From Minisyncoccota bacterium (GTDB taxonomy: Bacteria > Patescibacteriota > Minisyncoccia > Phycocordibacterales > UBA9973), in contig JBDSNU010000007.1 of NCBI GenBank assembly GCA_039915165.1, positions 113,812 to 177,811 of the forward strand: a DNA stretch of 64,000 bases, in the 5' to 3' direction. The notes under the pieces are model-generated. The model was not told the origin of the DNA and made no database searches. It saw nothing but the letters and a program-made list of their open reading frames with translations. A program made the position numbers and the translations under genes. Below are positions 1,135-45,877 of the stretch, piece after piece (positions within the stretch are counted from its first letter, which is position 1; every line of letters starts with the position of its first letter).

Positions 1135-1944
1135 ATGAAAAACCAGCGCAAAACGCTTCCGATGAATAAATCTTTTGAACACCCTACTCCTCGTAAGGTG
1201 GTTAAACTGGCAAGTACACTTGCACCTGGTCTAGAACGTCTTGAACGAGCAATTGCTCACCAAGGGCTAGCATCACGTCGCGAAGCTAAGGCATTGATCA
1301 CTGAAGGGTCAGTTAAGGTTAATGGCAAAATTATCAAAGAACCAGGATATGGAATAAAGGTGGGTATAGATGTTATTGATATCAAAGGCGGTGTACTACA
1401 AGAAGGCAAAGAATCAGTCTTGGTATACAAACCAAGAAATATTGAAACAAGTCGAACAGATTTTGGTTCTACTGCTGACAAATCTACAAAGAGTAAGGTG
1501 AAAGATTTACATGACTTCTTTCCTAAGTTTAAACACCTAGCTCCAATTGGCCGTCTCGACAAAGAATCAGAAGGGTTGATCATTATGTCGAACGATGGAA
1601 CATTGGCTCGAGCACTCACACAAGAAGACTCTCACGTTGGTAAAAAATATTTAGTAACCGTTCGTGAAAATATTACCGATACTACAATTTCAAAAATGAC
1701 AAAAGGTATCACGCTTGATGGCGTTAAAACAAAACCCGCAGTTATAGAGCGTGCATCACGTAGATCATTTACTATTATTCTTCACGAGGGACGCAAGCAT
1801 CAAATCCGCCGTATGGCCGATGCCTGCCATCTTACCGTTGAAGAACTTATCCGTACCGATATCGGTTCACTAAATATTGGAACAATGAAAGCTGGTTCTG
1901 TAAGAATCCTCGGTGCAGCTGATATTAAGAAATTGAAGAAATAA
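1135..1944 (+). CDS. Pseudouridine synthase, RsuA/RluB family (S4 domain plus catalytic domain).
   Basis: S4-like N-terminus (GLASRREAKALITEGSVKVNGK). The catalytic region LAPIGRLDKESEGLIIMSNDG carries the conserved Asp of the RsuA/RluB family. GRKHQIRRM is present near the C-terminus. Confidence 0.8.
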   Translation: MKNQRKTLPMNKSFEHPTPRKVVKLASTLAPGLERLERAIAHQGLASRREAKALITEGSVKVNGKIIKEPGYGIKVGIDVIDIKGGVLQEGKESVLVYKPRNIETSRTDFGSTADKSTKSKVKDLHDFFPKFKHLAPIGRLDKESEGLIIMSNDGTLARALTQEDSHVGKKYLVTVRENITDTTISKMTKGITLDGVKTKPAVIERASRRSFTIILHEGRKHQIRRMADACHLTVEELIRTDIGSLNIGTMKAGSVRILGAADIKKLKK

Positions 1945-2601: not shown

Positions 2602-3684
2602 TTACTGTTTAAATCTTATTTGGAAATTTAAATTCATGAAATTTTCACCATTACTTTCATAAATTTTACCGAATTCATGTCTGCCTGAACTGGGAGTATC
2701 AAAGTATGTATTCTTGTAGAGATAATCTTTAAACTCTTCTCGATTATACACATTATAACAAACCACATCACCATCATTTTTAACAATAATATAACCACCA
2801 TAAGCTTGCATATTTCCTTCCCATATTTTACTTGGCACCATACCCAGAGCAACCGCAACTAAAAACTCTTTCATTTTATGAACAAAAAAGGTTTTAGTTA
2901 TATTTAGTTTGTTATTTAAAGTTTCTTCTTTTTCAATAACATCAACCAGATCTTCAACTGATTTTCCTTTTCCTTGATAATAAGCAAGCAGAACCTCACT
3001 TAACATTTGTGGAAAAATGGAATCTGTCATTTTAAGATTTGATTCAAATTTCTTACTAGATGTTTCAATAAAATTTAATTTTACGCCATTATTAATTATC
3101 GTATTTATTCTATCTTTTATCTTAGATTTTGTTTTAATTGCATTTATTTCTTCAATATTAGGTATTCCTCCTTTTATTAAATAAATAAAATTAGTATGGC
3201 CTGAGGCATTTAATAATGTCGAACCACCTCCAAGCATAGATTTAACGCTAAATCCTAACTTTGTATCTTCAGGGGATATTCTATCTTTTACTGTCATAAT
3301 TAGATCTTCTTTTTTATAACTTGAAGCCTTAACTCTTGTACAATACATTTCGTTCATTAATTCTTCGGCAGTATTCGAAACAAAAGAAGATGAGGATGCA
3401 TTTTTTATCTCGTCAAAAATTTTAAGTGCGCATATCTTCAACTTTTCAGCTTTTATAACTGACAATTGTTCTCCATTTTTGATAATAGAAACTGAGTTTG
3501 AATCATTTGCTATTTCATATATGTATTTTTCTCCAGGGAATTCTTCTCTTATAATATTTAAAACTTCTAAGTATTTTTCTGGAATTCTATTTCGAGCAGA
3601 ATCAGCTGCAAATAATTTACCTTCTGAAAGAATTTTTACTAGTGCATAAAATTCACTCCATTCTCCCTTATTTGCTTTTATCAT
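2602..3684 (-). CDS. Type II restriction endonuclease, probably HpaII family.
   Basis: 360-aa ORF immediately downstream of the m5C MTase, overlapping it by 17 nt. The N-terminal KGEWSEFYALVKILSEGKL is recalled as the HpaII-family signature. Codon usage is AT-rich. Confidence 0.5.
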   Translation of the reverse strand: MIKANKGEWSEFYALVKILSEGKLFAADSARNRIPEKYLEVLNIIREEFPGEKYIYEIANDSNSVSIIKNGEQLSVIKAEKLKICALKIFDEIKNASSSSFVSNTAEELMNEMYCTRVKASSYKKEDLIMTVKDRISPEDTKLGFSVKSMLGGGSTLLNASGHTNFIYLIKGGIPNIEEINAIKTKSKIKDRINTIINNGVKLNFIETSSKKFESNLKMTDSIFPQMLSEVLLAYYQGKGKSVEDLVDVIEKEETLNNKLNITKTFFVHKMKEFLVAVALGMVPSKIWEGNMQAYGGYIIVKNDGDVVCYNVYNREEFKDYLYKNTYFDTPSSGRHEFGKIYESNGENFMNLNFQIRFKQ

Positions 3685-4552
3685 ATTCTTTCATTGACTT
3701 AATTATTTGTTTTGCAACAGCTTGAATTGCTGGAACTGCAACAGAATTTCCGAGCTGTTTCATCGCCTGAGCTTCTGAAACTGGAAATTGGTAGGTTTCA
3801 GGAAAACCCATCATTCTTTTACCTTCCTCAACTGTAATTCTTTTTGCCTTTCCATCTACTAAATAAGTATCCCAGTTTCTACGATCATGTAACCCAGATC
3901 CTCTTCCTCCAACACGTAATGTGTAACCAATATCTTTTTCACAATATGCGCCAAAAATATTAGACATGGTCATTGTTCTTTCTATTGGTTTTGGAAACTC
4001 AAATTTTATTTCTTTATTTTTAAAACCAATCATAAAAAGTCGCGCCCTATGTTGAGGAAGATTAAAGTCAGAAGCTCTAACTATTTTATAATAAAAAGAA
4101 TATCCCAGCTCTTCTTCAATAACTCTTTTTACTTCAGCGAAAGTATTACCGTTATCATGCTTTAAGAAGTGACTTACATTTTCAAGAAAAAATGCTTCTG
4201 GTCTTTTTTCTTTTAAGATTTTTACGATATCATAAAACAAAGTTCCTCGAACATCATCAAATCCTTTTTTCTTTCCCGCATGACTAAATGGCTGGCAAGG
4301 AAACCCTCCAGTGAGGATATTAAAATCGGGTATATTTTTAGGATCAACTTCTTTTATATCTCCAACAAAATTATTACCTTCAAAAATCCACGGTTCTTTC
4401 TTTTTGAAGTTTAGCTGATATGTTTCTCTTGCCTTTTGGTCCAGCTCAGATACAAAGACACATTCAGCTCCAGCATTTGAAAATGCAATATTAAAACCTC
4501 CAATACCCGCAAATAGATCTATAAATTTTATTTTAGAGTTATCTTGTTTCAT
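3668..4552 (-). CDS. DNA (cytosine-5)-methyltransferase.
   Basis: Motif I FAGIGGF, motif IV GGFPCQPFS and motif VI ENV (FFLENVSHF) are present. The C-terminal LGNSVAVP is also present. Confidence 0.85.
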   Translation of the reverse strand: MKQDNSKIKFIDLFAGIGGFNIAFSNAGAECVFVSELDQKARETYQLNFKKKEPWIFEGNNFVGDIKEVDPKNIPDFNILTGGFPCQPFSHAGKKKGFDDVRGTLFYDIVKILKEKRPEAFFLENVSHFLKHDNGNTFAEVKRVIEEELGYSFYYKIVRASDFNLPQHRARLFMIGFKNKEIKFEFPKPIERTMTMSNIFGAYCEKDIGYTLRVGGRGSGLHDRRNWDTYLVDGKAKRITVEEGKRMMGFPETYQFPVSEAQAMKQLGNSVAVPAIQAVAKQIIKSMKEYDKSK

Positions 4553-5659: not shown

Positions 5660-6862
5660 ATGCAAATATGCTATGGTTGTGGGTATATGAAGGAATTCAC
5701 ATTTTCTCAGCCGGTGAACATTGATACATTGCCGGCCACACTTTCCCAGCTAACCGGGTCACCGATAATTACTGGGGGCACTATCGATATATTAAACAAT
5801 GGTGATGAATTTTTTCCGTCACTATATACAGATCTCGAGGGCGCCAAAACTTCCATTGAGTTCAGTGTATACATTTGGAAGAAAGGTGTAGTAAGCACCA
5901 AAGTATGTAACCTTCTGATACAAAAAGCAAAACAAGGTGTACAAGTAAGACTATTACTTGATAGTTTTGGCGCACAACATACACCTGCAAATAAAATTGC
6001 TGAACTTAAAAAAGCAGGCGGAATGGTAGCGTGGTATCACCCGTTAAAATTTGGACTATTAATGAAGTTTTTCAAGCGTAACCATAGTCGATCTATCACG
6101 ATAGACAATACAATCTCATATACAGGGGGCATGGCAATTGCAGACTATTGGCTTGGTCATGCACAAGATAAGAATCATTGGAGAGATATCATGTTTCGCT
6201 TGAAAGGCCCCATCATCCATTCTGTTCAAGAGGCATTTACAAATATCTGGACTAGTGTTACCGGAGAAATACTTGTCGCTTCCCCCATCACTACACCGCC
6301 TGGAAATGAAATGCTTTCAATTGGTTATGTGAACGCATCTCCTGACCAAGATATGGAGCAACTATCTGCATTTTTCGCTACCACTATTGCTGCTGCCCGA
6401 GTATCAATAGATATTGTTACTCCTTATCTTATTCTTCAACCTCGGTTGAAAAAACAACTTATCAACGCAGTTCAACGAGGTGTGACAGTTCGCCTCTTAC
6501 TCCCCGGAAGATATATTGATTCAAAGATTGTGCAAGCAGCAAGTCAATATTCGTACAATGCATTACTCAGAGGCGGAATAAAAATTTTTGAATACAAGCC
6601 AACTATGATCCATGCAAAACTCTTGGTAGTTGATGGAGTATGGTCAATAATCGGTTCTGCCAATATCGACACGCGATCAACTTTTTATAATGTTGAAAAC
6701 AATATTGGTATAGCTGATGAGAAGTTTGCGGCCAAATTACAATCTATCATTCATGTTGAGATTACTAATGCTAGAGAAATTAAGGTCCGTAGATGGCAGC
6801 GTCGCTTTATATTTAGGAAAATCGCAGAATTTTTTGCTACCATTCCTGACGAGCAGTTTTAA
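5660..6862 (+). CDS. Phospholipase D / cardiolipin synthase family protein (ClsB-like, no TM segment).
   Basis: Second HKD motif is HAKLLVVDGVWSIIGSANID. The first motif is degenerate (NHSRSITIDNTISYTGGMAIAD). The alternative start is MKEF at 5687. Confidence 0.7.
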   Translation: MQICYGCGYMKEFTFSQPVNIDTLPATLSQLTGSPIITGGTIDILNNGDEFFPSLYTDLEGAKTSIEFSVYIWKKGVVSTKVCNLLIQKAKQGVQVRLLLDSFGAQHTPANKIAELKKAGGMVAWYHPLKFGLLMKFFKRNHSRSITIDNTISYTGGMAIADYWLGHAQDKNHWRDIMFRLKGPIIHSVQEAFTNIWTSVTGEILVASPITTPPGNEMLSIGYVNASPDQDMEQLSAFFATTIAAARVSIDIVTPYLILQPRLKKQLINAVQRGVTVRLLLPGRYIDSKIVQAASQYSYNALLRGGIKIFEYKPTMIHAKLLVVDGVWSIIGSANIDTRSTFYNVENNIGIADEKFAAKLQSIIHVEITNAREIKVRRWQRRFIFRKIAEFFATIPDEQF

Positions 6863-8566: not shown

Positions 8567-11500
8567 TTAGCTGCGTTTTTTGCTGAATACTGCCATTATA
8601 ACTAGTGCGCCAATAGCTAATAGTCCGAGAACTATTACCTTACCGGGACCAAGTGCTGTAACACCAGCAGCGCTGGCACTGAGCCCTTTCAAGGTTACTT
8701 CCGGATCTGACATTATGGTTCCTTCATCTGGAGCAGGAGCAGTAAGTATTGTGGTTGATGTAGTTTTTTTCTTGAGCGGAGTTTTTATGTCTTCCGCATC
8801 AGGCAAAATATCATCACTGGACTCATTATTTACATTTTCTTCTGATCCATCTGTATCAGTAGGAGTAACTGTACTACTTTGCATCGATACTGAAACATTA
8901 TTTCCCGACGAAGTTGCAATGGGAGCAGTTGTTGTGGTTGGAATAATCGTTGAAGTACTACCACCACTCTCAACTTTTAATTGTTTTATTTCTTCCGTAT
9001 TTCCGGCCCTATCGATTGATACAAAATAAACTGTACTACCTACACTTGTTGCAAAAGGCTTATCATATATTTGCCATACAATATTGTCAGTAGAATATTT
9101 TGTATTAAGGATGCCCGCATTATCATCTGTAGCTTTCAATGTAACTAAGCCATCAGCATATGTCGCTGTTGTAATGGGTACGACACTATCTTTTGCTTGC
9201 TTCTCTTCTAGAGATGATGATGCTTCAACAGTACGATCAATGGTGCCGTCATTATTATCATCAATAGTAATACTTGGTGAGCTATTTTCTTTACTTAAGG
9301 TAATCGTACCAAGTGTTTTGTCTGATAATAATGGCACTGCATGATAGTATGTTTGATGCGTTACAATATCAGATTCATCACTGTGCGAAATATACATGTC
9401 ATACAATCCAGCGGATTGTGCCTGCTGGGTTATTTTATATTTTGGACCAGTAGGTAAAAATACAAATTTTTCATCATCAATAACATCATACTGCACATTA
9501 GGAATTCCATACTCTATTCCTCCATCAATAGTTGGTCCAGTATGTCTACCTAATTCATCGTACACATTAAGCATAACTGGACTGTGCACATCAATAGTAT
9601 CCCCAGCCAAATTACATTGAGTCGACATAGTTGATATATCATTATTGGTAGTAGGCGCCTTGCCATCAAGTATTTGTACTATTGTGTCTTGAATTACAGG
9701 CAGTGATGCCACTGTGCCGTGCGAACCTGCGTGGACATAATAATTGTGAGCACCATTTTCAGCGACCGCGCTACTAACAGGAACTACGCCATCACCTGAA
9801 CCGTATAATAATCTATGCTCAGGGATTAACTTAAATCCAGTTAATGTTAAAGATTGTTCTTTTGTTAACGTAAAACCAGTAATTGTTTTTGTATTACCAC
9901 ATCCAGCAAAATCATACTTATCAAATGTCGAAGTCATTGTATCAATTTTGTCATGAAGTTGGTGGGCAAATGAAAACATGTTGTCATTTCTCCCATCCGC
10001 GATCATATACTTTTCGATATTGTCCTGACTCATATCATGTATTACTTGCGTTCTATCTTGAATGTAATGACTAACACCATCGATATATTTTTTGCTCGGT
10101 AAAAGTTCATACACTGAGGGCATATTTTGTGTAATAGTTTTCACTCGCTGCTCATTTAGTACGGGGACTTGTAATAACGAACCGAGAGAAAATCTAAAGC
10201 CCATATCATCACCATACATCAATGTTTTGAATGTTTTCGGAGCGCCGAGATGTGGCACTGCGATATAAAATAGATGATCAAGCGGTGCGGTTGGGTTTTC
10301 AGAAATATACTCTTTCACTAATAATCCGCCCATACTATGCGCAATGATGGTTACCTTTTTCTTCCCGCTCTTCAGTAATGCTTTTGCGATCATGTCTTTC
10401 AACAAGGATTGATTAACTGTATTACTTAGTCGCCAGTCATAGGGAAAGACAAATAAGTTAGCACCTTCGATATATCCTTTTGTATGTAAGGCATTTATCA
10501 TACTATTAAATATATCTACCGATGATGCTGAGCGAACAATGTCGCCTACTACCATTGGGCGCACTGTACTTGGAATACCGGTTTGTAATAACTCTAGATC
10601 ATTTAAATAACTATCTGTCGGACTTAGTGCAAGCTTAGCAATATTGGGCCATAACTCACTCTTATCTCCATAGTCTTTTGTTAAGATCGAACCGGTTATT
10701 CCTGGAACTATAATTATAGGATTTTGATCAGCTGTCGGAGGAGTAACAACGGGAGCCTCTGTTGTTGTCGGCTCATCTTTCATCCCTAACCATGGTTTAT
10801 AGATAACCTCAGTAGTGTTTTTTGTAATAATTGAATCACCTTTTCCCCCACTATTACTTTTAATGGTTGGCCCTGAATCACTGCCCCAGCCGTTATTTTT
10901 TATAACTGCTTTTACCATATCGATAACTGATACCCCTATAGTATTTCCATGAAAATAATTGTTGGTAATATTTTTAATTACAGGATTATTTAGTACGAGT
11001 GCAATTTTACTCGTAGTGAAATCAGAATTCGTAATAGTCAGATCACCTTGCTGCTCTGCAATAATAGCTGTTCCCGAAATATCTTTAAAATTACTGTGAG
11101 TAACACTTACCCCGGAAGCGGTTGCCTTAATAGCACTGCATAGATTGTGGAAATTGGTATATTTAATTTTACTATCAGCATTTGCTGCAAGAATGATAGA
11201 TGACATGTTGAGTGGACAAGTGCCATCTCCATAAACATTTACTGGTGATGCCTCCGTACCATTCACCACCAATGTGCCTCCTTGAGCTACATTAATACTA
11301 AACCCATCTTGAATAAAAACAGTAATACCATAATCTATAGTCAGCGTACCGCCATTCAATACCGTAATACCAAACACATAATATTCTCCATCGCGGGAAT
11401 TAAAATGGTAATTTTGACCTTGTAAAATATCACCACCATAATTCCACCCTTTAAACCCTTTCCCTAAAAACGTTGTGCCTGAATGTGTAAATGTGCCGTA

Positions 11501-12148
11501 AACATCAATCTGTGCTGGAAATGCCGTATCAAGAAAAGTACTGTCAGTTAATGTCACCTTTCCGCGAGTATTGGTCATACCAGTATTACAATTTGTAAAC
11601 ATCATATGGGAGGCATCAAGCACCACATCGCGGTCAACAGTTATTCCTGTCGCTGCATCTTTTATTTCTACGTATGACAAAGATCCAGAAGAGTTAGCCA
11701 TAAAGGTTATACCTCCATGTTTATTGTTTGTTACTGTTTTTTCAACAGACATTGAAACGCTCATGGGAACAACTTCGGGAGTTTGTATATTTTCCTCTTT
11801 TATTGGTTCGCTGTTATTAATCTCTTGCGTTAAAGTTTTTGCGGCTGATTCTTCATCTTTAGAAATAACTATATGGTTTTTTGTTGTACCTTTTGCGATT
11901 AATTTTCCATAGACCACTAGTCGTCCATTTTGTGCAAAAAATAATTGTGTTCCGGCAGGTATGATTAGCGTGGCTCCTACACTGACAAAAACATCACCCT
12001 TCACGGTATACGTAACATCGGCATCTAAAGTAGTTTCTGTTCGCCCTGGTTTTAATTCCTCGGCATAGACTTTTATAGTACTAAAAATAAAACTGGCAAT
12101 GAGAACGGTTATGGTAATAAAAAATGTTTTTTGGAATGGTAATTTCAT
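8567..12148 (-). CDS. Giant secreted surface protein with parallel beta-helix repeats, an alpha/beta-hydrolase (lipase/esterase) domain, a Ser/Thr-rich linker and a C-terminal TM anchor.
   Basis: A signal peptide is present (MKLPFQKTFFITITVLIASFIFS...YA). PbH1-like repeats are seen (NITNNYFHGNTIGVSV). The lipase nucleophile elbow is IIAHSMGGLLV. The C-terminus is GPGKVIVLGLLAIGALVIMAVFSKKRS. Confidence 0.6.
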   Translation of the reverse strand: MKLPFQKTFFITITVLIASFIFSTIKVYAEELKPGRTETTLDADVTYTVKGDVFVSVGATLIIPAGTQLFFAQNGRLVVYGKLIAKGTTKNHIVISKDEESAAKTLTQEINNSEPIKEENIQTPEVVPMSVSMSVEKTVTNNKHGGITFMANSSGSLSYVEIKDAATGITVDRDVVLDASHMMFTNCNTGMTNTRGKVTLTDSTFLDTAFPAQIDVYGTFTHSGTTFLGKGFKGWNYGGDILQGQNYHFNSRDGEYYVFGITVLNGGTLTIDYGITVFIQDGFSINVAQGGTLVVNGTEASPVNVYGDGTCPLNMSSIILAANADSKIKYTNFHNLCSAIKATASGVSVTHSNFKDISGTAIIAEQQGDLTITNSDFTTSKIALVLNNPVIKNITNNYFHGNTIGVSVIDMVKAVIKNNGWGSDSGPTIKSNSGGKGDSIITKNTTEVIYKPWLGMKDEPTTTEAPVVTPPTADQNPIIIVPGITGSILTKDYGDKSELWPNIAKLALSPTDSYLNDLELLQTGIPSTVRPMVVGDIVRSASSVDIFNSMINALHTKGYIEGANLFVFPYDWRLSNTVNQSLLKDMIAKALLKSGKKKVTIIAHSMGGLLVKEYISENPTAPLDHLFYIAVPHLGAPKTFKTLMYGDDMGFRFSLGSLLQVPVLNEQRVKTITQNMPSVYELLPSKKYIDGVSHYIQDRTQVIHDMSQDNIEKYMIADGRNDNMFSFAHQLHDKIDTMTSTFDKYDFAGCGNTKTITGFTLTKEQSLTLTGFKLIPEHRLLYGSGDGVVPVSSAVAENGAHNYYVHAGSHGTVASLPVIQDTIVQILDGKAPTTNNDISTMSTQCNLAGDTIDVHSPVMLNVYDELGRHTGPTIDGGIEYGIPNVQYDVIDDEKFVFLPTGPKYKITQQAQSAGLYDMYISHSDESDIVTHQTYYHAVPLLSDKTLGTITLSKENSSPSITIDDNNDGTIDRTVEASSSLEEKQAKDSVVPITTATYADGLVTLKATDDNAGILNTKYSTDNIVWQIYDKPFATSVGSTVYFVSIDRAGNTEEIKQLKVESGGSTSTIIPTTTTAPIATSSGNNVSVSMQSSTVTPTDTDGSEENVNNESSDDILPDAEDIKTPLKKKTTSTTILTAPAPDEGTIMSDPEVTLKGLSASAAGVTALGPGKVIVLGLLAIGALVIMAVFSKKRS

Positions 12149-12214
12149 TCCAAAAATATACCAATTACCCCTTCAATAAAAATTGAAGGGGTAATAAATT
12201 ATTTCTCAGTTATT

Positions 12215-13069
12215 CTACTGTGGGAAATATCTCAATATCCAAGAACTTCCTGGTATCAATGGGAAGATATCATGTCCTGTTCGGCGCAAAAGATATGGTG
12301 GGATTTGGCTGAATGGGATGGTTTGTATTGTAGAAGCTGCCGGTACTGCCGTTGCAACAGCAGACGTACGGAAGACACTGAAGCTTGTGCCGTCTGCATT
12401 GATGGCAGAAGGTACTGCTAATGCAACGGTGGTATTTCCTGTATCAAGTAAATTAATCATTTGAGGATTCATTTGTGATATTGCTAGACGTTGACCATTT
12501 TGTACCGCAGTCGCTCCAGTAAACGGTACTGGTGTGAACCCTGACAAAGGAGCAAGTACTCCATTTACCTGTGCTCTCTCTTGAATCCATTCAGCGGAAG
12601 AATGTAAAGAATGATATTGAACAGTTTTTGCAAATTGTTGTTTGGTAGTGTTATTGGTAATGACAATATTCCAGATGTCGGCTGAAGTTTCAATGATAGC
12701 AACACTGATGGAGTCTTTGGGGTGAACAGCGAGATTCACTGGCGTTGAGTCTTCTGGTAGAAGTTCATACCACGCTTGATACGTAGCGCCATCACTGTTA
12801 GCAATTTCATAAACGCCGGCTTGAATCAAGTCTGCACTACCCCTACCACCAATACCCACCCATGTCGCATTTGAAGCCAAGGTAGTTGAGTATGAAAGTT
12901 CTGGCATGACAAATGTCCCACTCACCCCTGTATATGTTCCCTGCTCAACTGCATATCCACTCCAGTTAGTTGATGCATTTAAAGAAACGTCGGCATAGGC
13001 TTTTGGTATTACCAGAAAAGATAGTGAAAATATAACGGCTATCAATGCTGCTTTTATAGATTTATTCAT
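12215..13069 (-). CDS. Secreted peptidase G1 (eqolisin, glutamic peptidase) family protein.
   Basis: A signal peptide is present. The protein aligns to scytalidoglutamic peptidase: TNWSGYAV against SNWAGAV, WVGIGG...LIQAGV against WVGIDG...ILQTGV (catalytic Gln), YQAWYELLPE against YDAWYEWYPD, and SAEWIQE against NAEWIVE (catalytic Glu). Confidence 0.75.
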   Translation of the reverse strand: MNKSIKAALIAVIFSLSFLVIPKAYADVSLNASTNWSGYAVEQGTYTGVSGTFVMPELSYSTTLASNATWVGIGGRGSADLIQAGVYEIANSDGATYQAWYELLPEDSTPVNLAVHPKDSISVAIIETSADIWNIVITNNTTKQQFAKTVQYHSLHSSAEWIQERAQVNGVLAPLSGFTPVPFTGATAVQNGQRLAISQMNPQMINLLDTGNTTVALAVPSAINADGTSFSVFRTSAVATAVPAASTIQTIPFSQIPPYLLRRTGHDIFPLIPGSSWILRYFPQ

Positions 13070-25989: not shown

Positions 25990-26334
25990 TTATTTAGGAT
26001 ACTGCAATTCCGTAATAGTTGGCGGAACAAATGTTTGTTGCTTGCTATTGAGCGTTAAGCCCGTAACACCAACTGTGTTGCCGAGAATGGTAATAATACC
26101 AAACACTCCAAACATGATTACAAACCCTACGATGCCCCACAACATATGATCCTTCCCTTCCTGACGCTTATCTTTGTCAGCAGCATTGCTGATGAATTGA
26201 AAGACGCCCCAAATGAAGACAACGAATGCAATAATGAATGCTCCTTCGATGGCGGGATTGATAATGTTGATATTTATCTTATACAACACTGTATCCAGCG
26301 CATCAGGACCTTGTGTAGCGGCGTAGGCAAACAT
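25990..26334 (-). CDS. VirB2/TrbC-like two-TM module protein, a putative T4SS-type pilin family member (paralog 1, module only).
   Basis: TM1 FIIAFVVFIWGVFQFI, a basic loop KDKRQEGK and TM2 WGIVGFVIMFGVFGII. The module is shared with four adjacent paralogs. Confidence 0.5.
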   Translation of the reverse strand: MFAYAATQGPDALDTVLYKININIINPAIEGAFIIAFVVFIWGVFQFISNAADKDKRQEGKDHMLWGIVGFVIMFGVFGIITILGNTVGVTGLTLNSKQQTFVPPTITELQYPK

Positions 26335-26340
26335 TGAATG

Positions 26341-26748
26341 CTATTGAAGGAATCCAGTAGTAGTACCACAAGTACCTGCAGTAGGATTGTATGTCAAACC
26401 TGGAGGACAAGTAACAGCTGGAGATCCAGACATTGTATCAACACCAGTAATTGTTCCTGCTAGGTGAATGATGCCCCATACAGCAACTGACACGAATAGA
26501 CCGATCAATCCATTGATCATAGCCTTGCGAAGATCAGCAACCTTAGATGCATCTGTGTTCATAATGAAACGAAGCACATTGTACAAGAAGAATACTGTCA
26601 TCAAGATAGTAAGAACTGTAACTGCTAAACGCAAGTATACAAGCCCTTGGCCTACGAATGAGTTGATATAGTTAAAGTTTTGCGCGAAGGCAACTGCGGG
26701 CAAAAGAACTGCTGATAGTGCACTAACATTAAAAACTGCTTTTTTCAT
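26341..26748 (-). CDS. Secreted VirB2/TrbC-like module protein with a Cys-containing C-terminal tail (paralog 2).
   Basis: Signal peptide MKKAVFNVSALSAVLLPAVAFA. Module LRLAVTVLTILMTVFFLYNVLRFI...GLIGLFVSVAVWGIIHL. Tail CPPGLTYNPTAGTC. Confidence 0.5.
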   Translation of the reverse strand: MKKAVFNVSALSAVLLPAVAFAQNFNYINSFVGQGLVYLRLAVTVLTILMTVFFLYNVLRFIMNTDASKVADLRKAMINGLIGLFVSVAVWGIIHLAGTITGVDTMSGSPAVTCPPGLTYNPTAGTCGTTTGFLQ

Positions 26749-26831
26749 AATAAATTAATTATTTACTTTATCCTGGTTAAGTACAGGTATAATAAAAAGT
26801 ATACCACGAAAAGCTATTGTCTAGCAGTGGA

Positions 26832-27728
26832 TTACTTTGATGCCTTACTATTACTGAGATAGTCGGTCTGTAGGACAGGGACAGTATTATCAAGACCTAA
26901 TGTAGTGGTAGCAATTTTTATAATTCCCCACACTGATACCATAACGAATAAGCCAATCAGACCCATATATATGAACTGTTTACTTTCTTGCTTGTCTTTT
27001 TGTTCAGAGGATCGGATGAATTTAAATACACCCCACAAGAAAACAACGAATGCCAACGTGAAGATACCAGGGATTATTACTGCTCCAATAATACATTTCG
27101 CCCAGATTGCAATATCTAACAATGTTTTAAATTTGGCACTACATGATTGTGCTGCTTGCATGTCTGTAGCGGTTGCCGCCAATCCTGCACCTGATCCAGT
27201 ATTGTATGCAGTACTACTGCCACCATTGAGAGGATTGGTTGTTTGTGAGCCGCCTACTTGCTGGGAAGTAGCTGAGGGATTGTAGTAATAATATTGCTGA
27301 CAGGCAGCTACCATCGTATCAGTTGTTGCATTGGTACAACAAGTACTAGCATTACCATCTGTTATGGTAGCGCAACTACTTTGGGTTTGAGCAGTAGTGG
27401 TTGATGGGGCACGGTTTGCACATGCATCTGCATAGGTATATGAGTTGGCGCCATAACAACAGGTAGAGTAATTATCATTAGTAACATTACTACAACTGAT
27501 TGCAGTGTTGGTTGTAGCTGGTGTGGTGGTAGTAGTTGTAGGATTCGCTTTTTCATATTCAGAACATTGCATGCTATTTGCAGCAACTCCCTCACCGCCA
27601 ACGGACTGAACACAACAAGATTGATAATTAGCACTAGTGACCGGCTGACATGAATCCGCAGCCTGAGCTGTAGGGAGGATAGAAACCAATGAAAGTACTA
27701 ATATAATTGCAGCAAGTATTTTTTTCAT
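26832..27728 (-). CDS. Secreted Cys-rich repeat ectodomain protein with a C-terminal VirB2/TrbC-like module (paralog 3).
   Basis: A signal peptide is present. Three degenerate repeats of NY-x-[ST]-CC type occur (SANYQSCCV, NDNYSTCCY, DGNASTCCT). The C-terminal module is FVVFLWGVFKFIRSSEQKDKQESKQFIYMGLIGLFVMVSVWGIIK. Confidence 0.55.
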   Translation of the reverse strand: MKKILAAIILVLSLVSILPTAQAADSCQPVTSANYQSCCVQSVGGEGVAANSMQCSEYEKANPTTTTTTPATTNTAISCSNVTNDNYSTCCYGANSYTYADACANRAPSTTTAQTQSSCATITDGNASTCCTNATTDTMVAACQQYYYYNPSATSQQVGGSQTTNPLNGGSSTAYNTGSGAGLAATATDMQAAQSCSAKFKTLLDIAIWAKCIIGAVIIPGIFTLAFVVFLWGVFKFIRSSEQKDKQESKQFIYMGLIGLFVMVSVWGIIKIATTTLGLDNTVPVLQTDYLSNSKASK

Positions 27729-27732
27729 ATTA

Positions 27733-28173
27733 TTAATTTACTATATTGTTAACTGTTCCAACAATAGCATTGGTAAGCGTCCAAGCACCCAGGATAAGCA
27801 GAGTTCCGATGACTGTGTAGAAGAACATATTCTTTGCTACCTTCATCTTCTCTGGATTGCCGCGAGCAAAAATAAACTGTAGGCCTGTCCAAATAAACAT
27901 AAGGATGATCAATGGTAATGCAATGCGAATGACAATGCTTAAAATTTTATTAATGGCTTCGGGTATGGTACTTATTCCACTTAAGGGATTGTTGAGATGG
28001 ATATTTAATGCAGAACCTGATGATACAGGAGCCCCATTTCCAGGGGAAGGAGTTGCGCTATTTCCTCCATTCCCAGGAGAAGGTGTGGTTGCGGCCTGCA
28101 CAGAAAGAGTCATTACAAAAAACAATACTATTGCTGAAAGTGAACCGAGATATTTTTTCATATTTTTAATCAT
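27733..28173 (-). CDS. Secreted Pro/Gly-repeat protein with a C-terminal VirB2/TrbC-like module (paralog 4).
   Basis: A signal peptide is present. The tandem repeat is TPSPGNG-x5. The module is LPLIILMFIWTGLQFIFARGNPEK...TVIGTLLILGAWTL. Confidence 0.5.
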   Translation of the reverse strand: MIKNMKKYLGSLSAIVLFFVMTLSVQAATTPSPGNGGNSATPSPGNGAPVSSGSALNIHLNNPLSGISTIPEAINKILSIVIRIALPLIILMFIWTGLQFIFARGNPEKMKVAKNMFFYTVIGTLLILGAWTLTNAIVGTVNNIVN

Positions 28174-28176
28174 ATA

Positions 28177-29052
28177 TTATTTTTGGAAGAAGTATAAATC
28201 GTCATGATATCCTAGTACTGAAATAATAGTGCGCACTATCACCCATGCACAAAGCATGAGCAACAGTCCAAGTACGAGATGCTTCGCCATACTGCCGAGT
28301 TTGGCATGCTGACCAGGCTTACCCATGGCCGCAATATAACTATAGCCGAGATACATTATCATGATGATTACCAATGGTAACAAGATAGTATTAAAAAAGA
28401 ATGACATGATATTATTCGCCAACTGCAATAGAGAGTTAAGATCACATTCGTCCCCTGCTCCACCATCACAAGGAATAAGCCCCATGCCTTTACTACTAGA
28501 AGATGATACAGGAACTAATGGTGGAATAGTACCATTTGTTATTGTGGTTGAAGATTGATTTGGTGTTGATGTTGAAGCTGGAATAACAGCCGGCGTTTGA
28601 GTTTGCTGAGTCGCAAGCCCAGCACCAGAAGTTGTCGCAACAGCTGCTTTTGTAGTGAAATCACAGTCAGTTATTGCTTCGGTAGTGTTAGATGATTGAG
28701 AAGTAGGGATAACAAAAACGCTATAACTAGTTAATGGCTTCAGATTATGAAAACCGTAGTTCTGCTGAGTATTGTACGATGCAGGACTTATCACATCCAC
28801 TGGTTTCAAATTTTTTTTATCATCTACATCTGCTATAACGAAACCTGCATTACTAAAAGTATATGTGGTGGTATTTTGCTTAATAGTTAGTACAGCTAAA
28901 TCAGGCCTTATGTCCTTTGCAATACATGAAAAACTGGCTGCGTGTATCTTCTGAGTAGGTATAGCTACAAGTGCCGCAAAAATAAACAGGTGAAAAATCT
29001 TAATGCCAAAAACATTTTTATTGAGCAGTTGTTTGAAGGTCGCGTGTTGCAT
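28177..29052 (-). CDS. Secreted protein with a roughly 200-aa ectodomain and a C-terminal VirB2/TrbC-like module (paralog 5).
   Basis: Signal/anchor segment. Ser/Thr-rich linker. A CDGGAGDEC motif precedes the module LLPLVIIMIMYLGYSYIAAMGKPGQHAK...LGLLLMLCAWVIV. Confidence 0.5.
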   Translation of the reverse strand: MQHATFKQLLNKNVFGIKIFHLFIFAALVAIPTQKIHAASFSCIAKDIRPDLAVLTIKQNTTTYTFSNAGFVIADVDDKKNLKPVDVISPASYNTQQNYGFHNLKPLTSYSVFVIPTSQSSNTTEAITDCDFTTKAAVATTSGAGLATQQTQTPAVIPASTSTPNQSSTTITNGTIPPLVPVSSSSSKGMGLIPCDGGAGDECDLNSLLQLANNIMSFFFNTILLPLVIIMIMYLGYSYIAAMGKPGQHAKLGSMAKHLVLGLLLMLCAWVIVRTIISVLGYHDDLYFFQK

Positions 29053-30307
29053 TGTCGATTGCTGTTTGCGTATCAGTAGTATTACTGTTTACGTTATTAA
29101 TCATATCACGGAAGATCGTATTGGTACTAGCAGGATTGGGGTCTGGCCATGAGAATGCAGAGAGTGCTGATTGGAAAAAAACTGAAACATATGGATTGCT
29201 TTGCGCTAGCTGTAATAGGTCACGGCGCACTGGTGGTAATGAAAATTGTTTTGACAATGCATCAATACTTGCACTAGTTGCCAGCTGACTTGCAGCAGCA
29301 TACGCAGCAATAGCATTCGGTGCTTTGGCCATTATACCTACTGCCAATATTGATCCGTATGTTGTACCGCGACCTGTTGCAGAACTTTGAAACATTTGTG
29401 ACACATCGAAATTAAGATTGGGGTTTTGGGATTGGATTTGAAACAACTCACTAGCGCGACCGATATAAAATGCAGACTTCCCAGCCAAGAAATTTTGGAG
29501 GCTTTCAGGCAAAGAACTATTCCATGTGTAGTTGTCTTTGGTAGGGTTGGCAAAACTAGTGTAATAATCCAACGCTTGCACTGCTGCAGGTGTTTCCGTA
29601 GCACTACTGCCATTATTTAATACCACTTTTTGATTGACGATAATTGGATTGCCTGTTTGCAAAAATAATGTTGAGAGAATATCTCGCGCATGCAAAATAT
29701 TATTTGCTTCGCCCAGCGCAACAGTGCTCTGAGTAATCTGTCGTTTAGCATCACGACGAGTAAGTACTGGAATAGCCGCCTGCAAATCACTCCATGTTTT
29801 CGGTGGTACTAAAAAGTTTCGAGAAGCCAATATATCTTTGTTGTAATACACAACAAGTGGATCTACGAGTAGCGGCAATGCGCCGATACCAGTACTGGAC
29901 AAGAAAAACTGTGCACCATCAATGTTGGTATCGCGATACTGTCGCTCAGTATATGCACTAAAAGGTATGGTGTAGAGCTTACTACTGAGTTGAGCGTATT
30001 GCTCAGAATTAATCATGACCAAATCTGGTGATTGACCATTTGCTAGTGCAGTAATAATCTCCTGATAAAACGTTACGGCTTTGTGCTGACTATAATCAAG
30101 TGTGTAGCCATAATTTTCACTATTAAAGTTGTCGACAAACTTTTGCATATCAGCATACGGGATCACACCCCATACAACAACGGTACCTGTGGGAGTGGTG
30201 GATGCTGTTTTACTAGAGGATGAAAAAAGCCCTGAGAAAACTGCAATTGCAATGACAAAGCCAACAATAAATACAACAATGAGAATGGTTTGAAATGATG
30301 ACTTCAT
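29018..30307 (-). CDS. Extracellular solute-binding protein (ABC-type, family 1-like), TM-anchored, with no adjacent permease or ATPase.
   Basis: N-terminal TM anchor, and SBP-like periplasmic-binding fold signatures across 429 aa. Confidence 0.5.
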   Translation of the reverse strand: MKSSFQTILIVVFIVGFVIAIAVFSGLFSSSSKTASTTPTGTVVVWGVIPYADMQKFVDNFNSENYGYTLDYSQHKAVTFYQEIITALANGQSPDLVMINSEQYAQLSSKLYTIPFSAYTERQYRDTNIDGAQFFLSSTGIGALPLLVDPLVVYYNKDILASRNFLVPPKTWSDLQAAIPVLTRRDAKRQITQSTVALGEANNILHARDILSTLFLQTGNPIIVNQKVVLNNGSSATETPAAVQALDYYTSFANPTKDNYTWNSSLPESLQNFLAGKSAFYIGRASELFQIQSQNPNLNFDVSQMFQSSATGRGTTYGSILAVGIMAKAPNAIAAYAAASQLATSASIDALSKQFSLPPVRRDLLQLAQSNPYVSVFFQSALSAFSWPDPNPASTNTIFRDMINNVNSNTTDTQTAIDNATRDLQTTAQ

Positions 30308-36384: not shown

Positions 36385-36996
36385 ATGGAACAAACAACAG
36401 AACACCAGACTCCCTCTCCAGAAATAGCCCCGCGGAAGACTTTTTTCCAAACTGGCCTTGGAAAGTTTATTGAAAATGTTCTTTATATCATTGGCGCAGT
36501 TATTTTTGCTGCAATTATCCAAGCGTTCCTTATTCGTCCTTTTATTGTAAGCGGTACATCAATGGACCCTGTGATCAAAAACGGTCAGTACCTTATTATT
36601 GATGAAGTAACCTACCATATCCATACACCTGAGCGTGGCGATGTGATCGTTTTCAAGGCACCACCAGAACCAAGCAAGTACTACATCAAACGTGTAATCG
36701 GCCTACCAGGAGATACCGTGAAGATCAAAGACGGTAAGGTTACTATTGTTAATACTGCACATCCAGATGGATTTACATTGAATGAACCTTATCTGACTCA
36801 CCTTTCAAACGATAATGGAACATTCGTTGTTACTCAAAATAATTACTTTGTGATGGGAGACAATCGTACTGGAAGTTACGACTCTCGATCATGGGGTATG
36901 CTGCCTATTGAAAATATCCGTGGGCGTGCAGTGCTACGACTATTACCAGTAAATACCGTAAGTGTATTACCAGGAAAAGAAACATATGAGTACTAA
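36385..36996 (+). CDS. lepB: Signal peptidase I.
   Basis: SGTSMDP (Ser), KRVIGLPGD (Lys) and GDNRTGSYDSR boxes are present. Confidence 0.85.
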   Translation: MEQTTEHQTPSPEIAPRKTFFQTGLGKFIENVLYIIGAVIFAAIIQAFLIRPFIVSGTSMDPVIKNGQYLIIDEVTYHIHTPERGDVIVFKAPPEPSKYYIKRVIGLPGDTVKIKDGKVTIVNTAHPDGFTLNEPYLTHLSNDNGTFVVTQNNYFVMGDNRTGSYDSRSWGMLPIENIRGRAVLRLLPVNTVSVLPGKETYEY

Positions 36997-41563: not shown

Positions 41564-41635
41564 TTCCCCTGTAGCTCAGCGGTAGAGCGGTCGCCTGTTA
41601 AGCGATTGGCCGTAAGTTCGAATCTTACCGGGGGA
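41564..41635 (+). tRNA. tRNA-Asn (GTT).
   Basis: Acceptor stem TCCCCTG/CGGGGGA. D arm GCTC-AGCGGTA-GAGC. Anticodon arm GTCGC-CTGTTAA-GCGAT. T arm GTAAG-TTCGAAT-CTTAC. Confidence 0.75.
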
Positions 41636-41698
41636 GCTAAGTGTTTATCGTGAAAGTGACCTATCCGCGTCCGGATAAGCCATTTTCTAGCGAGTTAA

Positions 41699-41759
41699 GT
41701 AACACACCAAAAAAGCCACAATGACTTAACCCACAATTGTGGCTTTTTTGGTGTGTTAC
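41699..41759. terminator. 24-bp perfect-stem hairpin between tRNA-Asn and the ABC/IS chimeric gene.
   Basis: gtaacacaccaaaaaagccacaat-(13 nt)-attgtggcttttttggtgtgttac. Confidence 0.7.
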
Positions 41760-41762
41760 TTT

Positions 41763-42602
41763 TTAATCAGGCAAGAATCCACCTGACTGCATTTTCCATA
41801 AATGAGCATACTTTCCATTCTGTTGAAGCAATTCTTCATGCGTACCATCCTCAACAATTTTTCCACCTTCCACAAATACAATACGGTCCATTGATTGAAG
41901 TGTCGAGAGTCGGTGAGCAATAGCAATGACTGTCTTCCCTTTCATTAGAATGGTTAATGCTTCTTGTACCTTTCCCTCACTTTCGCTATCAAGGGCACTC
42001 GTTGCTTCATCGAGAATAAATAGCGGGCTGTTCTTAAGTATGGCTCGAGCAATTGCAATACGCTGTCGTTGTCCACCCGAAAGCTTCACGCCCCGTTCAC
42101 CGACAACAGTGTTGTAGCCTTTTGGCAATGTTGAAATAAAGTCATCGGCATAGGCCATCTTTCCTGCTTGTTCGACTACTTCTCTTGAAGCCTCGGATGA
42201 GCCGTAGCGAATGTTTTCAGCAATCGTCGTATGGAAGAGCGATGTATCCTGAGAAATAAAAGAAATATGAGAACGGAGAGAATCTTGGGTCATTGTTGTT
42301 ATATCCACATCATTAATTTTTATTGTTCCACTTTGTGGGTCAAAGAACCTCAATAAAAGATTTATCGCCGTAGTCTTTCCCGCGCCGCTCAAGCTTGGCT
42401 TGAAGCCGCATAGCAGATGAACGTGGTCACCGTCGGTGCCGATGGCTTCGAACTCGATGTCGTAGCGTTCCTGGATGGAGCGGGAAATCTCCAGAATCGC
42501 TCTGTCTATCCGTGGCGTCAGCAGCGCCTTGCGGTACTTTAACGGAAAGACTATGTGATAGTGGGTGTCGTACGTGCTGTGGTTTGCGCTCTTGTTCGCC
42601 AT
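41763..42602 (-). pseudogene. Chimeric ORF. An IS200/IS605 TnpA N-terminal fragment (about 64 aa) is fused in frame to the C-terminal nucleotide-binding domain of an ABC exporter whose TMD is missing.
   Basis: The N-terminus HYHIVFPLKYRKALL...GDHVHLL matches the TnpA HuH motif. Walker A is LSGAGKTT, the signature is LSGGQRQRIAIARA, Walker B is ILDEATSALD and the H-loop is IAHRLST. GC content changes sharply at about 42405. Confidence 0.7.
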
Positions 42603-42700
42603 GGTTCGAGTCTATATGAAAACCTTAGGTTTTCATACTTTCCGAAAAGGAAACCCCGCAGCAAGCTGCGGGGAATTTGGGGGTTTAAAGACTAATATAA
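42410..42700 (-). mobile_element. IS200/IS605-family remnant: left-end hairpin plus the 5' part of tnpA.
   Basis: The subterminal hairpin ccccgcagc-aa-gctgcgggg lies upstream of the tnpA start. The segment is high-GC relative to its flanks. Confidence 0.55.
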
Positions 42701-42815
42701 CATCTAAATCTTTTACTTCCTGATATCTATTTTTTACCTCATCAAATAGTTCTTTGTATCTTTCAAAACCAACATTCATAGATTAATTATTATATAAATT
42801 GTACGTCTTAATGTA

Positions 42816-43103
42816 TTAGGACAGGTGAACCAATCGCTTATCCGTGATGGTTTTATGAAGCTTGTCGCGCTCGATTGTTCGCGCTATTTCAGGTATTCCT
42901 AGAGCTGAGGATGGAATATCACAAATCATATTACCGTGAAGATCAATGATCGCTCCTTTTTGAACAAGCGTGGTCTCGTTCCAAAAAGAATCGCCAAGAT
43001 TAAATTTTTGCATGATTCGCAGACCGTTACCATTCTTGTCCTGAAACACTGAAGACGTTTCTGTGCCATGCAGCGTCCGTTCCACTGCGCCTCCAACAGG
43101 CAC
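42816..43103 (-). pseudogene. Orphan C-terminal fragment of a paralog of the 43367-43996 gene (low GC).
   Basis: It shares the SSVFQ[DG]K[ND]G segment and a 28-bp near-identical nucleotide patch with the upstream gene. Confidence 0.45.
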
Positions 43104-43366
43104 GCGCTGTATTTTATGCGGGAGCGTCGTACTCCACTACTGCATGACACCAGATATATTTTTTTAATATGTATCCTTCACGCACCACCCTGACGCAGAC
43201 CTCGACCTGCGCCAATCCCGATGTGATCGGATAGAAACCTTCGCCCGAAGCCGTGACCGCAGGCATGTCAAAAATCTCGGCTTTAGTATATCAAAATAAA
43301 ATTAAACGCAAAAAGAGCCCAAGGTACAAAGTATCCAAGGGCTCAATAGTTTTAGAGGCAAAATCC

Positions 43367-43996: not shown

Positions 43997-44155
43997 TAGT
44001 ATGTTTTTACAGTGTTTTGAAAAGAAATACGTTTTTAGTATCATAGCATGAATTGAGTATAAAGTCAATGATTTAAAGGCTATGCCCAAAAAGCCTCGTT
44101 TTTTCGCCACGACTACACATTTTCCCCGATCCAAGCTAAGGTACCCAAACCTTCC

Positions 44156-44623: not shown

Positions 44624-44680
44624 GCCCGTGACGACTGCCGAACAGTGCGGTCTTTGCCGATACTCAACAGCAAATCAGCG

Positions 44681-45638: not shown

Positions 45639-45639
45639 G

Positions 45640-45877
45640 AGAGCTGGAAAAATCAGGAATGGTTATAGAACGACTGGAGCCATGGAAAGGCAAAGTTACA
45701 TTCAAAGATGTGGGGGCCCTTGTATTTATGCTCAAGGCTGTGCCATGGACTGTAGGTGATTTCAGTGTCATTAAACACCGAGAGGTATTAGAAAAGCTAA
45801 AAAAAGATATTGATAAGAACGGAAAATTAACTTTTGCTGAGAGTAAGTATTTAATAATTGCAAAGAAAAAAGTCTAG
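45640..45877 (+). pseudogene. C-terminal remnant of a native class I SAM-dependent methyltransferase, cut by the high-GC insertion.
   Basis: The low-GC tail ...ERLEPWKGKVTFKDVGALVFMLKAVPWTVGDFSV resembles the C-termini of type-11 methyltransferases. The upstream part of the ORF is out of context and high-GC. Confidence 0.45.

Follow-up and report, generated by a model that had tools for sequence, protein, structure and literature searches.

A predicted surface-anchored LCAT/LPLA2-type hydrolase with a beta-helix domain in Patescibacteria

A large share of bacterial diversity belongs to the Patescibacteria (Candidate Phyla Radiation, CPR). These organisms lack fatty acid and phospholipid synthesis, yet their membranes are built of ordinary acyl lipids and are rich in lysolipids. 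How do such cells obtain their lipids, and could a surface enzyme take part? The question is raised by a gene in a stretch of 64,000 nucleotides (the window, by which we mean this whole stretch) from a Minisyncoccota bacterium (GenBank assembly GCA_039915165.1, contig JBDSNU010000007.1, positions 113,812 to 177,811), the source genome being a metagenome-assembled genome of Candidatus Paceibacterota (Patescibacteria/CPR). The gene, 3.6 kb long and in DNA of 38% GC, is an open reading frame (ORF) of 1193 codons at 8567..12148 on the minus strand with an ATG start; the identical protein (MEO5646040.1) is labelled "hypothetical protein ABIO57_03150" at NCBI. Here we ask what kind of enzyme it encodes, how the protein is held at the cell surface and whose lipids it may act on.

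The LCAT/LPLA2-type hydrolase and its companion domains

Thirteen proteins with this architecture were found by a word-indexed protein search, and relatives are encoded in at least 219 GTDB species representatives (219 stretches in the scan). A wider set of 76 relatives from GTDB genomes was compared in sequence, and 70 complete distant relatives were compared at their C-termini. Given the length of the ORF in DNA of this composition, the 13 full-length homologues and the GTDB relatives, a chance ORF is excluded by far. From N- to C-terminus, the protein is composed of a signal peptide, a right-handed beta-helix, an LCAT-family alpha/beta-hydrolase, beta-sandwich and immunoglobulin-like (Ig) modules, a disordered Ser/Thr-rich stalk, a transmembrane (TM) helix and the short tail SKKRS (Table 1). 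The structure was modelled with AlphaFold2 from the 13-sequence family alignment, with a mean predicted local distance difference test score (pLDDT) of 68.9.

The identity of the catalytic domain is indicated by several independent comparisons. Pfam family LCAT (PF02450) matches residues 543-728 with 84.5 bits against a gathering cutoff of 21 (E=1.1e-23), while other Pfam alpha/beta-hydrolase families give only sub-threshold, generic matches, PGAP1 among them (16.9 against 24.3 bits). In a phmmer search, lysosomal phospholipase A2 (LPLA2, 4x90) was matched at E=1.5e-6 with the AHSMG elbow aligned. The hydrolase domain is modelled at moderate confidence; still, the eight top-ranking Foldseek matches in the PDB comprise only structures of LPLA2 and LCAT (E from 3.8e-10 to 3.9e-6), with TM-scores, normalised to target length, of 0.55-0.65 (0.65 with about 410 aligned columns in the strongest match). 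The AHSMGG elbow and the presumed catalytic residues Ser605, Asp786 and His810 are invariant in 13 of 13 full-length homologues, and Asp786 and His810 also in all 77 sequences of the wider comparison, the relatives having been selected independently of these two residues. Taken together, sequence and model support a genuine LCAT/LPLA2-type serine hydrolase with a Ser605-Asp786-His810 triad. The catalytic domain alone is widespread in bacteria: 545 matches at E<=1e-6, a listing that did not include the 13 full-length family members, carry generic names only, with no characterised member among them.

Table 1. Predicted features of the 1193-residue protein and of the adjoining intergenic DNA; positions are those of the window.
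Feature	Residues	Position	Strand	Basis
Signal peptide (MKLPFQK, hydrophobic core, KVYA/EE)	1-29	12062..12148	-	hydropathy peak 7-29, sequence
Right-handed parallel beta-helix	30-455	10784..12061	-	pLDDT, Foldseek, Pfam
Pro/Thr-rich interdomain linker	456-475	10724..10783	-	composition; pLDDT <50 over 452-472
LCAT/LPLA2-type alpha/beta-hydrolase	476-830	9659..10723	-	Pfam, phmmer, Foldseek, conservation
Nucleophile elbow AHSMGG, with Ser605	603-608	10325-10342	-	sequence, alignment
Asp786 in GDGVVP	786	9779-9796	-	conservation
His810 in GSHGT	810	9713-9727	-	conservation
Two beta-sandwich modules	831-998	9155..9658	-	pLDDT 80-89, all-beta
OmpL47-type/bacterial Ig-like domain	999-1060	8969..9154	-	NF047446; pLDDT 81-89, beta strands
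Disordered Ser/Thr-rich, then acidic stalk	1061-1134	8747..8968	-	composition, pLDDT ~25
Juxtamembrane block	1135-1165	8654..8746	-	conservation
PAPDEGTIMSD, within juxtamembrane block	1138-1148		-	conservation
L-S-A-S-A motif	1156-1160	8669-8683	-	conservation
C-terminal TM helix (LGPGKVIVLGLLAIGALVIMAVF)	1166-1188	8585..8653	-	hydropathy maximum 2.84; model helix 1170-1188
Cytoplasmic basic tail SKKRS, with stop codon	1189-1193	8567..8584	-	sequence
Terminator-like hairpin (14-bp stem, then T-run), between G1 peptidase gene and lipase start		12164..12195	-	consensus scan, pattern match only

Two beta-sandwich modules without any match in Pfam follow the hydrolase. The first contains the motif C845...HSPVxLxVYDxxGxHTG, in which H855, S856, P857, D864 and H869 are kept in 70-75 of 77 sequences. 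PF24096 (DUF7379) was considered for this post-lipase sandwich and rejected, because its match overlaps the region of the nucleophile elbow instead. Cys845, at the start of the sandwich, has a counterpart in the hydrolase domain, Cys750: 73 sequences have the two together, and the remaining four have neither. Since the two residues are kept or lost together, the hydrolase and the adjacent sandwich are probably linked by a C750-C845 disulfide, which in turn points to a location outside the cytoplasm. Consistent with the covarying pair, five related loci (L023, L026, L036, L044 and L046; 9365-9928 in L036) have a gene of the DsbB family (31 bits, cutoff 22) immediately upstream of the lipase gene. 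The third module is Ig-like, NCBIfam model NF047446 matching residues 1002-1059 with 42.2 bits (cutoff 40).

The N-terminal half is dominated by the beta-helix, modelled at pLDDT of about 90 over residues 30-452, with periodic short strands over 46-452. The Pfam Beta_helix model (PF13229) reaches 22.2 bits in the full protein, below its cutoff of 25.9, and 26.0 bits in a scan restricted to residues 30-455; homologues bear precomputed matches to PF13229, PF28492 and PF05048. By fold, its matches in the PDB are AlgG (4nk8), PL6 alginate lyase (8bwk), RbmB (9ozl), K1 capsule lyase and Ag43. The helix closes with a C-terminal cap, NNGWGSDSGP...NPxGxGD (residues 418-440), whose residues are invariant in 13 sequences. 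An NxWGxxxGP cap motif occurs in 45 of the 76 relatives, counted anywhere in the protein regardless of its position relative to the lipase domain, and points to a conserved beta-helix/lipase supra-domain. Within the helix, residues ~98-143 (11720-11857) form a disordered insertion with short repeated (S/T)PE(V/I)xPL-like motifs, the copy number of which differs, by eye, among homologues.

Could the enzyme then be a carboxylesterase of acetylated or esterified polysaccharides, or of polyesters, rather than a lipase, with the beta-helix as its substrate-binding module or as a second, lyase-like catalytic module? The likeness of the helix to polysaccharide lyases and epimerases (AlgG, PL6, RbmB, K1 capsule lyase) would suit this, as would weak fold matches of the hydrolase to the polyhydroxybutyrate depolymerase PhaZ7 (E~9e-3) and names such as "pimeloyl-ACP methyl ester carboxylesterase" in the source records. 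These names, however, are automatic and generic, no carbohydrate-esterase or lyase family is matched at threshold, and LPLA2 and LCAT are the best matches in sequence and fold by orders of magnitude, with true lipases next. We therefore regard a non-lipid esterase as very unlikely and retain the LCAT/LPLA2-type assignment.

Export is predicted from the N-terminus. A hydropathy scan of the whole protein detects two hydrophobic segments only, residues ~7-29 and ~1166-1188. The first is followed by a site of signal peptidase I type, read from the sequence as VYA/EE, with V and A at positions -3 and -1 in agreement with the -3/-1 rule; in the model this region has low pLDDT and a short helix at 7-18. 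Homologues have equivalent N-termini, and a signal peptidase I gene is present in the window at 36385-36996.

A description of this gene made earlier from the letters and their translations (the sequence-only reading) can now be compared with these results. It had given the ORF at 8567-12148 and its 1193 residues correctly, with no strand stated; the strand is minus. The signal peptide it had proposed agrees with the hydrophobic segment and the putative VYA/EE site, and its parallel beta-helix repeats were recovered in the model, in the fold matches and in the PF13229 score of the isolated domain. Of its "LCAT/PGAP1-like" hydrolase, the LCAT part holds well above cutoff, while PGAP1 is matched below threshold only; a hydrolase fold around AHSMGG is indeed predicted by AlphaFold2 and matched by LPLA2 and LCAT in Foldseek. 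Domain scans, model, fold matches and conservation thus support its general picture of a putative extracytoplasmic, membrane-tethered multidomain enzyme.

Stalk, anchor and the question of a sorting signal

Behind the Ig-like module the chain is predicted to lose its fold. In the model, residues 1062-1166 are disordered (about 105 residues), Ser and Thr account for 29 of the 76 residues in the scanned stretch 1060-1135, and both length and sequence of the stalk vary among homologues. The juxtamembrane block that follows is of another character: in its PAxxEGTxMxD segment the residues P, A, E, G, T, M and D do not vary among the seven closest sequences, despite the predicted disorder. Then comes the second hydrophobic segment, with GPGK at residues 1167-1170; a TM segment is retained in 11 of 11 close homologues with intact C-termini and in 28 of the 70 complete distant relatives. 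Endings of the KKRS, KRRA or KKRR type recur among homologues, and a cytoplasmic location of the basic tail SKKRS fits the positive-inside rule. The Ser/Thr linker and the terminal TM helix with its GPGK and basic tail, as described in the sequence-only reading, are thus found again, and loss of the hydrophobic segment was not seen in any close homologue with an intact end.

The C-termini of the distant relatives are of several types. Besides the 28 with a TM segment and basic tail, there are others that terminate in a basic, amphipathic segment with Trp, or in modules of unrelated sequence (...IKEDIxYLINNL, ...DWNxxRxIVY). Since differing attachment modules occupy the same C-terminal position, the end behaves as an exchangeable anchoring device, which fits a family-specific means of attachment and speaks against a sorting signal. 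Two distant proteins, P0056 and P0066, end in a TM helix with an Arg-rich tail, and the sequence of a distant LCAT-domain relative, P0057, closes with "...IPGFPVWSIVVALLVYSHILRNRIL", which is Loki-CTERM/PGF-like in a match below threshold. Surface tethering of this type of LCAT-domain enzyme appears to have arisen repeatedly.

Is the tail merely an anchor, or does it carry a signal? A motif [LI]x[AST][SN] lies 37-40 residues from the C-terminus in 12 of 12 close family members and at exactly 38 in nine of them, against a background of 0.046 per 12-residue window; this L-x-A-S-type motif is held even where the close-family tails are otherwise unalignable. A related motif, [LIQ][TLSA]A[SA][VAILT], with a background of 0.005 per window, occurs in 14 of the 28 TM-tailed distant relatives and also before the amphipathic, non-TM endings of some relatives. 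Such regularity suggests another possibility, namely that the tail is a new type of sorting signal that undergoes processing, with cleavage at L-x-A-S about 38 residues from the end by a sortase-, rhomboid- or exosortase-like enzyme. The ectodomain would then be attached to the wall or shed, and the TM helix would act only as a transient retention signal. The tripartite layout in the register of LPXTG signals, the constant spacing in the close family, the related motif in distant relatives (ahead of some non-TM ends as well) and the sub-threshold PGF/Loki-CTERM likeness of the P0057 tail all speak in favour of it. Sortases, moreover, are encoded in more than half of CPR genomes, with a patchy distribution outside Microgenomates, the latter being a point on the opposite side (PMC6744442).

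The direct searches do not bear this possibility out. NCBIfam sorting-signal models, including TIGR01167 (LPXTG) and the CTERM models, gave no match to the target tail even at E<=10, whereas in the same scan control tails from relatives (P0057, P0056 and P0009) were matched weakly by Loki-, PGF- and Heimdall-CTERM models, so the scan is able to report such signals. With a profile of the 62-residue tail, an exhaustive search of 1.84 billion representatives matched nothing beyond the representative of the family itself; an empty word-indexed search with this profile was disregarded, since local hmmsearch does recover the family's members (E~1e-25). Sorting signals are normally common to several unrelated substrates, but motif and anchor were found together in none of 997 non-family ORFs in about 1.2 Mb of related loci, and in no unrelated protein of the window. 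Searching for the sortase pattern TLxTC and for other ORFs that end in a TM segment followed by a basic tail yielded no real candidate in the window or in loci L001-L006. Genes for sortase and exosortase, for which the sequence-only reading had proposed to look, were found neither in the 64-kb window nor in the ~7 kb upstream of it, and rhomboid genes are likewise absent there and, as are the other two, from the recurrent neighbours.

Its statement that the tail resembles a sorting signal is hence supported by none of the tests run (models, tail profile, ORF scan, sortase search), while its addition that the tail is neither LPXTG nor PEP-CTERM agrees with the lack of any model match. All in all, a new sorting signal seems unlikely to us, and we favour a plain type-I membrane anchor, predicted from the sequence, which the family-specific nature of the tail fits.

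Distribution, proposed role and neighbouring genes

The best 80 of the 219 stretches belong almost entirely to Patescibacteria (Nomurabacteria, Paceibacterota, Minisyncoccia, Falkow-, Komeili-, Magasanik-, Staskawicz- and Taylorbacteria), and within the searches made the full architecture of beta-helix, LCAT domain, Ig modules and anchor was found only in this phylum. Seven records (L054, L061, L072, L073, L075, L078 and L084) are titled "uncultured Gammaproteobacteria", "Methanoregula sp." or "Saccharibacteria" and contain typical Patescibacterial versions of this gene, so that mislabelling or misbinning is probable. Close orthologues share a conserved gene order: SpoU methylase, gltX, in some cases a G1 peptidase, the lipase, a Pif1-like helicase (starting 18 bp after the lipase gene in the window) and a GTPase. 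This shared synteny indicates a vertically inherited core gene and not mobile cargo.

As a full model, we propose a type-I membrane-anchored ectoenzyme that acts as a phospholipase A on lipids of neighbouring or host cells, and we hold this to be fairly probable. The protein would be exported by the Sec pathway and cleaved by signal peptidase after VYA29, which would free its N-terminus, whereas the single C-terminal TM helix would stop transfer and leave SKKRS in the cytoplasm. The stalk of about 105 residues, disordered, Ser/Thr-rich and acidic, together with the three beta-sandwich/Ig modules, would carry the enzyme through the wall, the LCAT/LPLA2-type hydrolase probably being locked to the adjacent sandwich by the disulfide. 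At the distal tip, the polysaccharide-lyase-like beta-helix would bind envelope glycans of the neighbouring or host cell and position the hydrolase there; that it docks on such glycans is probable from its likeness to polysaccharide-binding and lyase folds. The hydrolase would deacylate phospholipids as a phospholipase A, possibly with LCAT/LPLA2-like transacylase activity, and the products, lysolipids and fatty acids, would be usable by a lipid-auxotrophic symbiont. We infer in this model the substrate, the targeting of a host, glycan binding by the beta-helix and the unprocessed state of the anchor; the host-lipid role in particular, which the sequence-only reading had suggested as well, is drawn from the enzyme family, surface display and the lipid auxotrophy of Patescibacteria (PMC7242380, PMC11665869).

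The model meets an existing discussion. Patescibacteria are without lipid synthesis, and their mechanisms of lipid uptake and breakdown have not been identified (PMC11665869). CPR bacteria are enriched in lysolipids, for which an unnamed phospholipase A was proposed as a possible source (PMC7242380), and for Vampirococcus the harvest of host lipids by a secreted phospholipase has been proposed (PMC8080830). The idea of CPR phospholipases attacking hosts is therefore already published. New in the present case are the combination of beta-helix, LCAT domain, a probably disulfide-linked beta-sandwich, Ig module, stalk and anchor, and the phylum-wide spread of this architecture; no earlier description of this lipase family was found in the literature searched.

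Several points weigh against the model. Membership in the LCAT family leaves the substrate unfixed, the bacterial members being uncharacterised, and the counterparts of the LCAT membrane-binding and cap/lid regions (residues 485-545 and 638-664) are modelled at pLDDT below 50. No lipid transporter or acyltransferase occurs among the conserved neighbours, and the beta-helix could be a spacer and not a binding module. Finally, an L-x-A-S motif at fixed register next to an invariant PAxxEGTxMxD is not explained by a passive anchor.

The same enzyme might also work on its producer's own envelope, as a housekeeping outer-leaflet acyltransferase or phospholipase which remodels scavenged lipids, for instance by re-acylating lysolipids, or acylates a wall polymer. 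Enzymes of the family (LCAT, LPLA2, PDAT) are often transacylases, the gene is vertically inherited among conserved housekeeping neighbours, and the window contains a cardiolipin-synthase-like gene at a distance of 1.7 kb. That CPR membranes are lysolipid-rich would also be in keeping with such a role (PMC7242380). On the other side, the cardiolipin-synthase-like neighbour is not kept in relatives, and the stalk, three Ig-like modules and a beta-helix of about 420 residues would put the active site, as modelled, far from the cell's own membrane, a geometry which suits reaching outward. Action on the own envelope is accordingly improbable in our view, and action on foreign lipids remains the preferred explanation.

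Examination of the distant relatives revealed a possible partner of the lipase. In 48 of the 70, a same-strand gene for a protein of about 90-120 residues with 2-3 TM segments (typically ~105 residues and three segments) lies directly downstream, after a gap of mostly 5-20 bp (11 bp in L023 and 7 bp after the stop codon in L053). It occurs regardless of the C-terminal type of the lipase. An example from the related loci L015-L086 reads "MIQKLQKTFHTDKWWGKTIFIILTYVLYWCIFYG...", and 35 of 51 such proteins fall in one cluster by composition-corrected BLAST, with no Pfam match among them. No homologue was found in the window or in close relatives; a marginal match in L007 was rejected as an unrelated single-TM protein. 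The small protein could be an immunity, docking or uptake component.

This leads to a bolder, more speculative proposal, to which we assign only a small chance. The lipase may belong to the missing Patescibacterial system for acquisition of host lipids, stripping acyl chains or lysolipids from the host envelope together with a dedicated membrane component: the downstream 3-TM protein of about 105 residues in most lineages and, in the clade of the protein described here, the invariant juxtamembrane PAxxEGTxMxD/L-x-A-S tail, perhaps also a new processing or sorting site. Whatever the fate of this proposal, a "hypothetical" gene is seen to belong to a phylum-spanning family (at least 219 species representatives) with predicted surface display and an intact LPLA2/LCAT-type triad, and it provides a clonable, specific candidate for how episymbionts obtain host lipids. 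Should the enzyme be an ordinary esterase, the finding shrinks to a routine annotation upgrade.

Two genes near the lipase deserve description. Directly upstream of it, at 12215-13069 on the minus strand, a secreted glutamic endopeptidase of the G1 family (Peptidase_A4, eqolisin-type; E=6e-35) is encoded. Peptidases of this family are known mostly from fungi. The gene is also found upstream of the P0004 orthologue and in five GTDB loci, and is absent in L001 and L002. An obligatory operon with the lipase is unlikely, since a terminator-like hairpin separates the two genes and the peptidase is missing upstream of the L001 and L002 orthologues. Two genes, or 1.7 kb, away on the other side, the plus-strand gene at 5660-6862 encodes a cardiolipin-synthase-like protein of the phospholipase D superfamily, ClsB-like and with two PLDc_2 domains, which scores 248 bits with TIGR04265, below the cutoff of 290. 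From its sequence it may remodel lipid head groups, in an organism without lipid synthesis. A functional tie to the lipase was rejected, as the two genes are not syntenic in relatives.

The rest of the window contains further loci of note. A 392-residue secreted protein (57278-58456, minus strand), labelled acyloxyacyl hydrolase at NCBI, combines a domain of the lipid A 3-O-deacylase PagL (E=7e-13) with an outer-membrane beta-barrel match below threshold. Its gene adjoins those of a metallo-beta-lactamase-fold hydrolase and a D-Ala-D-Ala carboxypeptidase (56203-57249 and 55324-56184, both minus), an order reproduced in an independent Logan assembly. An outer-membrane type of protein in a supposedly monoderm Patescibacterium could reflect horizontal gene transfer, misbinning or attack on host lipopolysaccharide. 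At 25990-29052 (minus), five tandem genes with T4SS_pilin/TrbC-VirB2-like domains are followed by a solute-binding protein gene at 29018-30307 (compare 1235-3358 in L005), and a gene for a VirD4/TrwB-type coupling protein is situated about 5 kb upstream of the window start; by their sequences, pilin-like array and coupling protein look like a Patescibacterial type IV secretion locus.

Beside tRNA-Asn (41565-41637), an island at ~41700-46000 with a GC content of 0.47, compared with ~0.39, contains an IS200-type Y1 transposase fragment fused to a fragment of an ABC (ATP-binding cassette) ATPase, an N6/N4 DNA methylase and an ORF with weak likeness to terminases; it probably represents a tRNA-associated mobile element or prophage that has degraded. 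At 2602-4552 (minus), the window encodes an HpaII-type restriction endonuclease (E=4e-108), overlapped by a same-strand ORF (3668-4552) that precomputed Pfam annotation of L005 calls DNA_methylase (PF00145). Restriction-modification genes at this position differ between orthologous loci, BpuJI-type genes being found in L002.

Relation to known systems

The tail can be compared with LPXTG signals, with which it shares the succession of motif, spacer, hydrophobic helix and basic tail, the motif standing about 38 residues from the C-terminus. It differs in the motif itself, L-x-A-S (LSASA), in being confined to its own family and in that no sortase was found nearby.

As for the enzyme, the closest known counterparts are LPLA2 (group XV phospholipase A2, PDB 4X90) and LCAT (4XWG/4XX1) of PF02450, with a common fold, an AHSMG-type elbow and a Ser-Asp-His triad, which work as phospholipases A and transacylases at membrane or lipoprotein surfaces. 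These, however, are eukaryotic soluble glycoproteins of about 380-420 residues, 14-19% identical to the protein described here and devoid of beta-helix, Ig modules and anchor. The lipase AFL of Archaeoglobus fulgidus (2ZYH) resembles it in that an alpha/beta-hydrolase is followed by a C-terminal beta-barrel or sandwich (fold match at E=4e-4), and the second domain of AFL contributes to lipid binding; with a TM-score of 0.25 the match is far weaker than those of LPLA2 and LCAT, and AFL is soluble, without beta-helix or anchor.

A loose parallel is offered by Tle4 (4R1D), an effector of the type VI secretion system (T6SS) and a serine alpha/beta-hydrolase phospholipase directed against the membrane of another bacterium, as the present enzyme would be, with a weak fold match (E=1.9e-5, TM-score 0.33). 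The small membrane protein gene behind the lipase in distant relatives recalls the immunity gene adjacent to Tle4. Enzymes of the Tle type are injected through the T6SS, whereas the enzyme described here would be tethered to its producer; T6SS genes are not present, and Pfam Tle3 is matched only in distant relatives at E~0.1.

Within bacteria, the homologous catalytic domain is found at 24-47% identity in PF02450 proteins annotated as lipase family alpha/beta hydrolase or lipase/acyltransferase domain-containing (Clostridium, Streptomyces, Saccharospirillum, Acidobacteria and many Patescibacteria). The Patescibacterial ones share the HSPVxLxVYD beta-sandwich behind the catalytic domain, but the proteins are mostly of 350-650 residues and lack the N-terminal beta-helix and the TM tail. 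Pectin-lyase-fold proteins, in turn, are common on CPR surfaces (PMC5220378) and have in common with the protein described here a secreted right-handed beta-helix with the NxWGxxxGP cap; the difference is that here the beta-helix is joined to a lipase.

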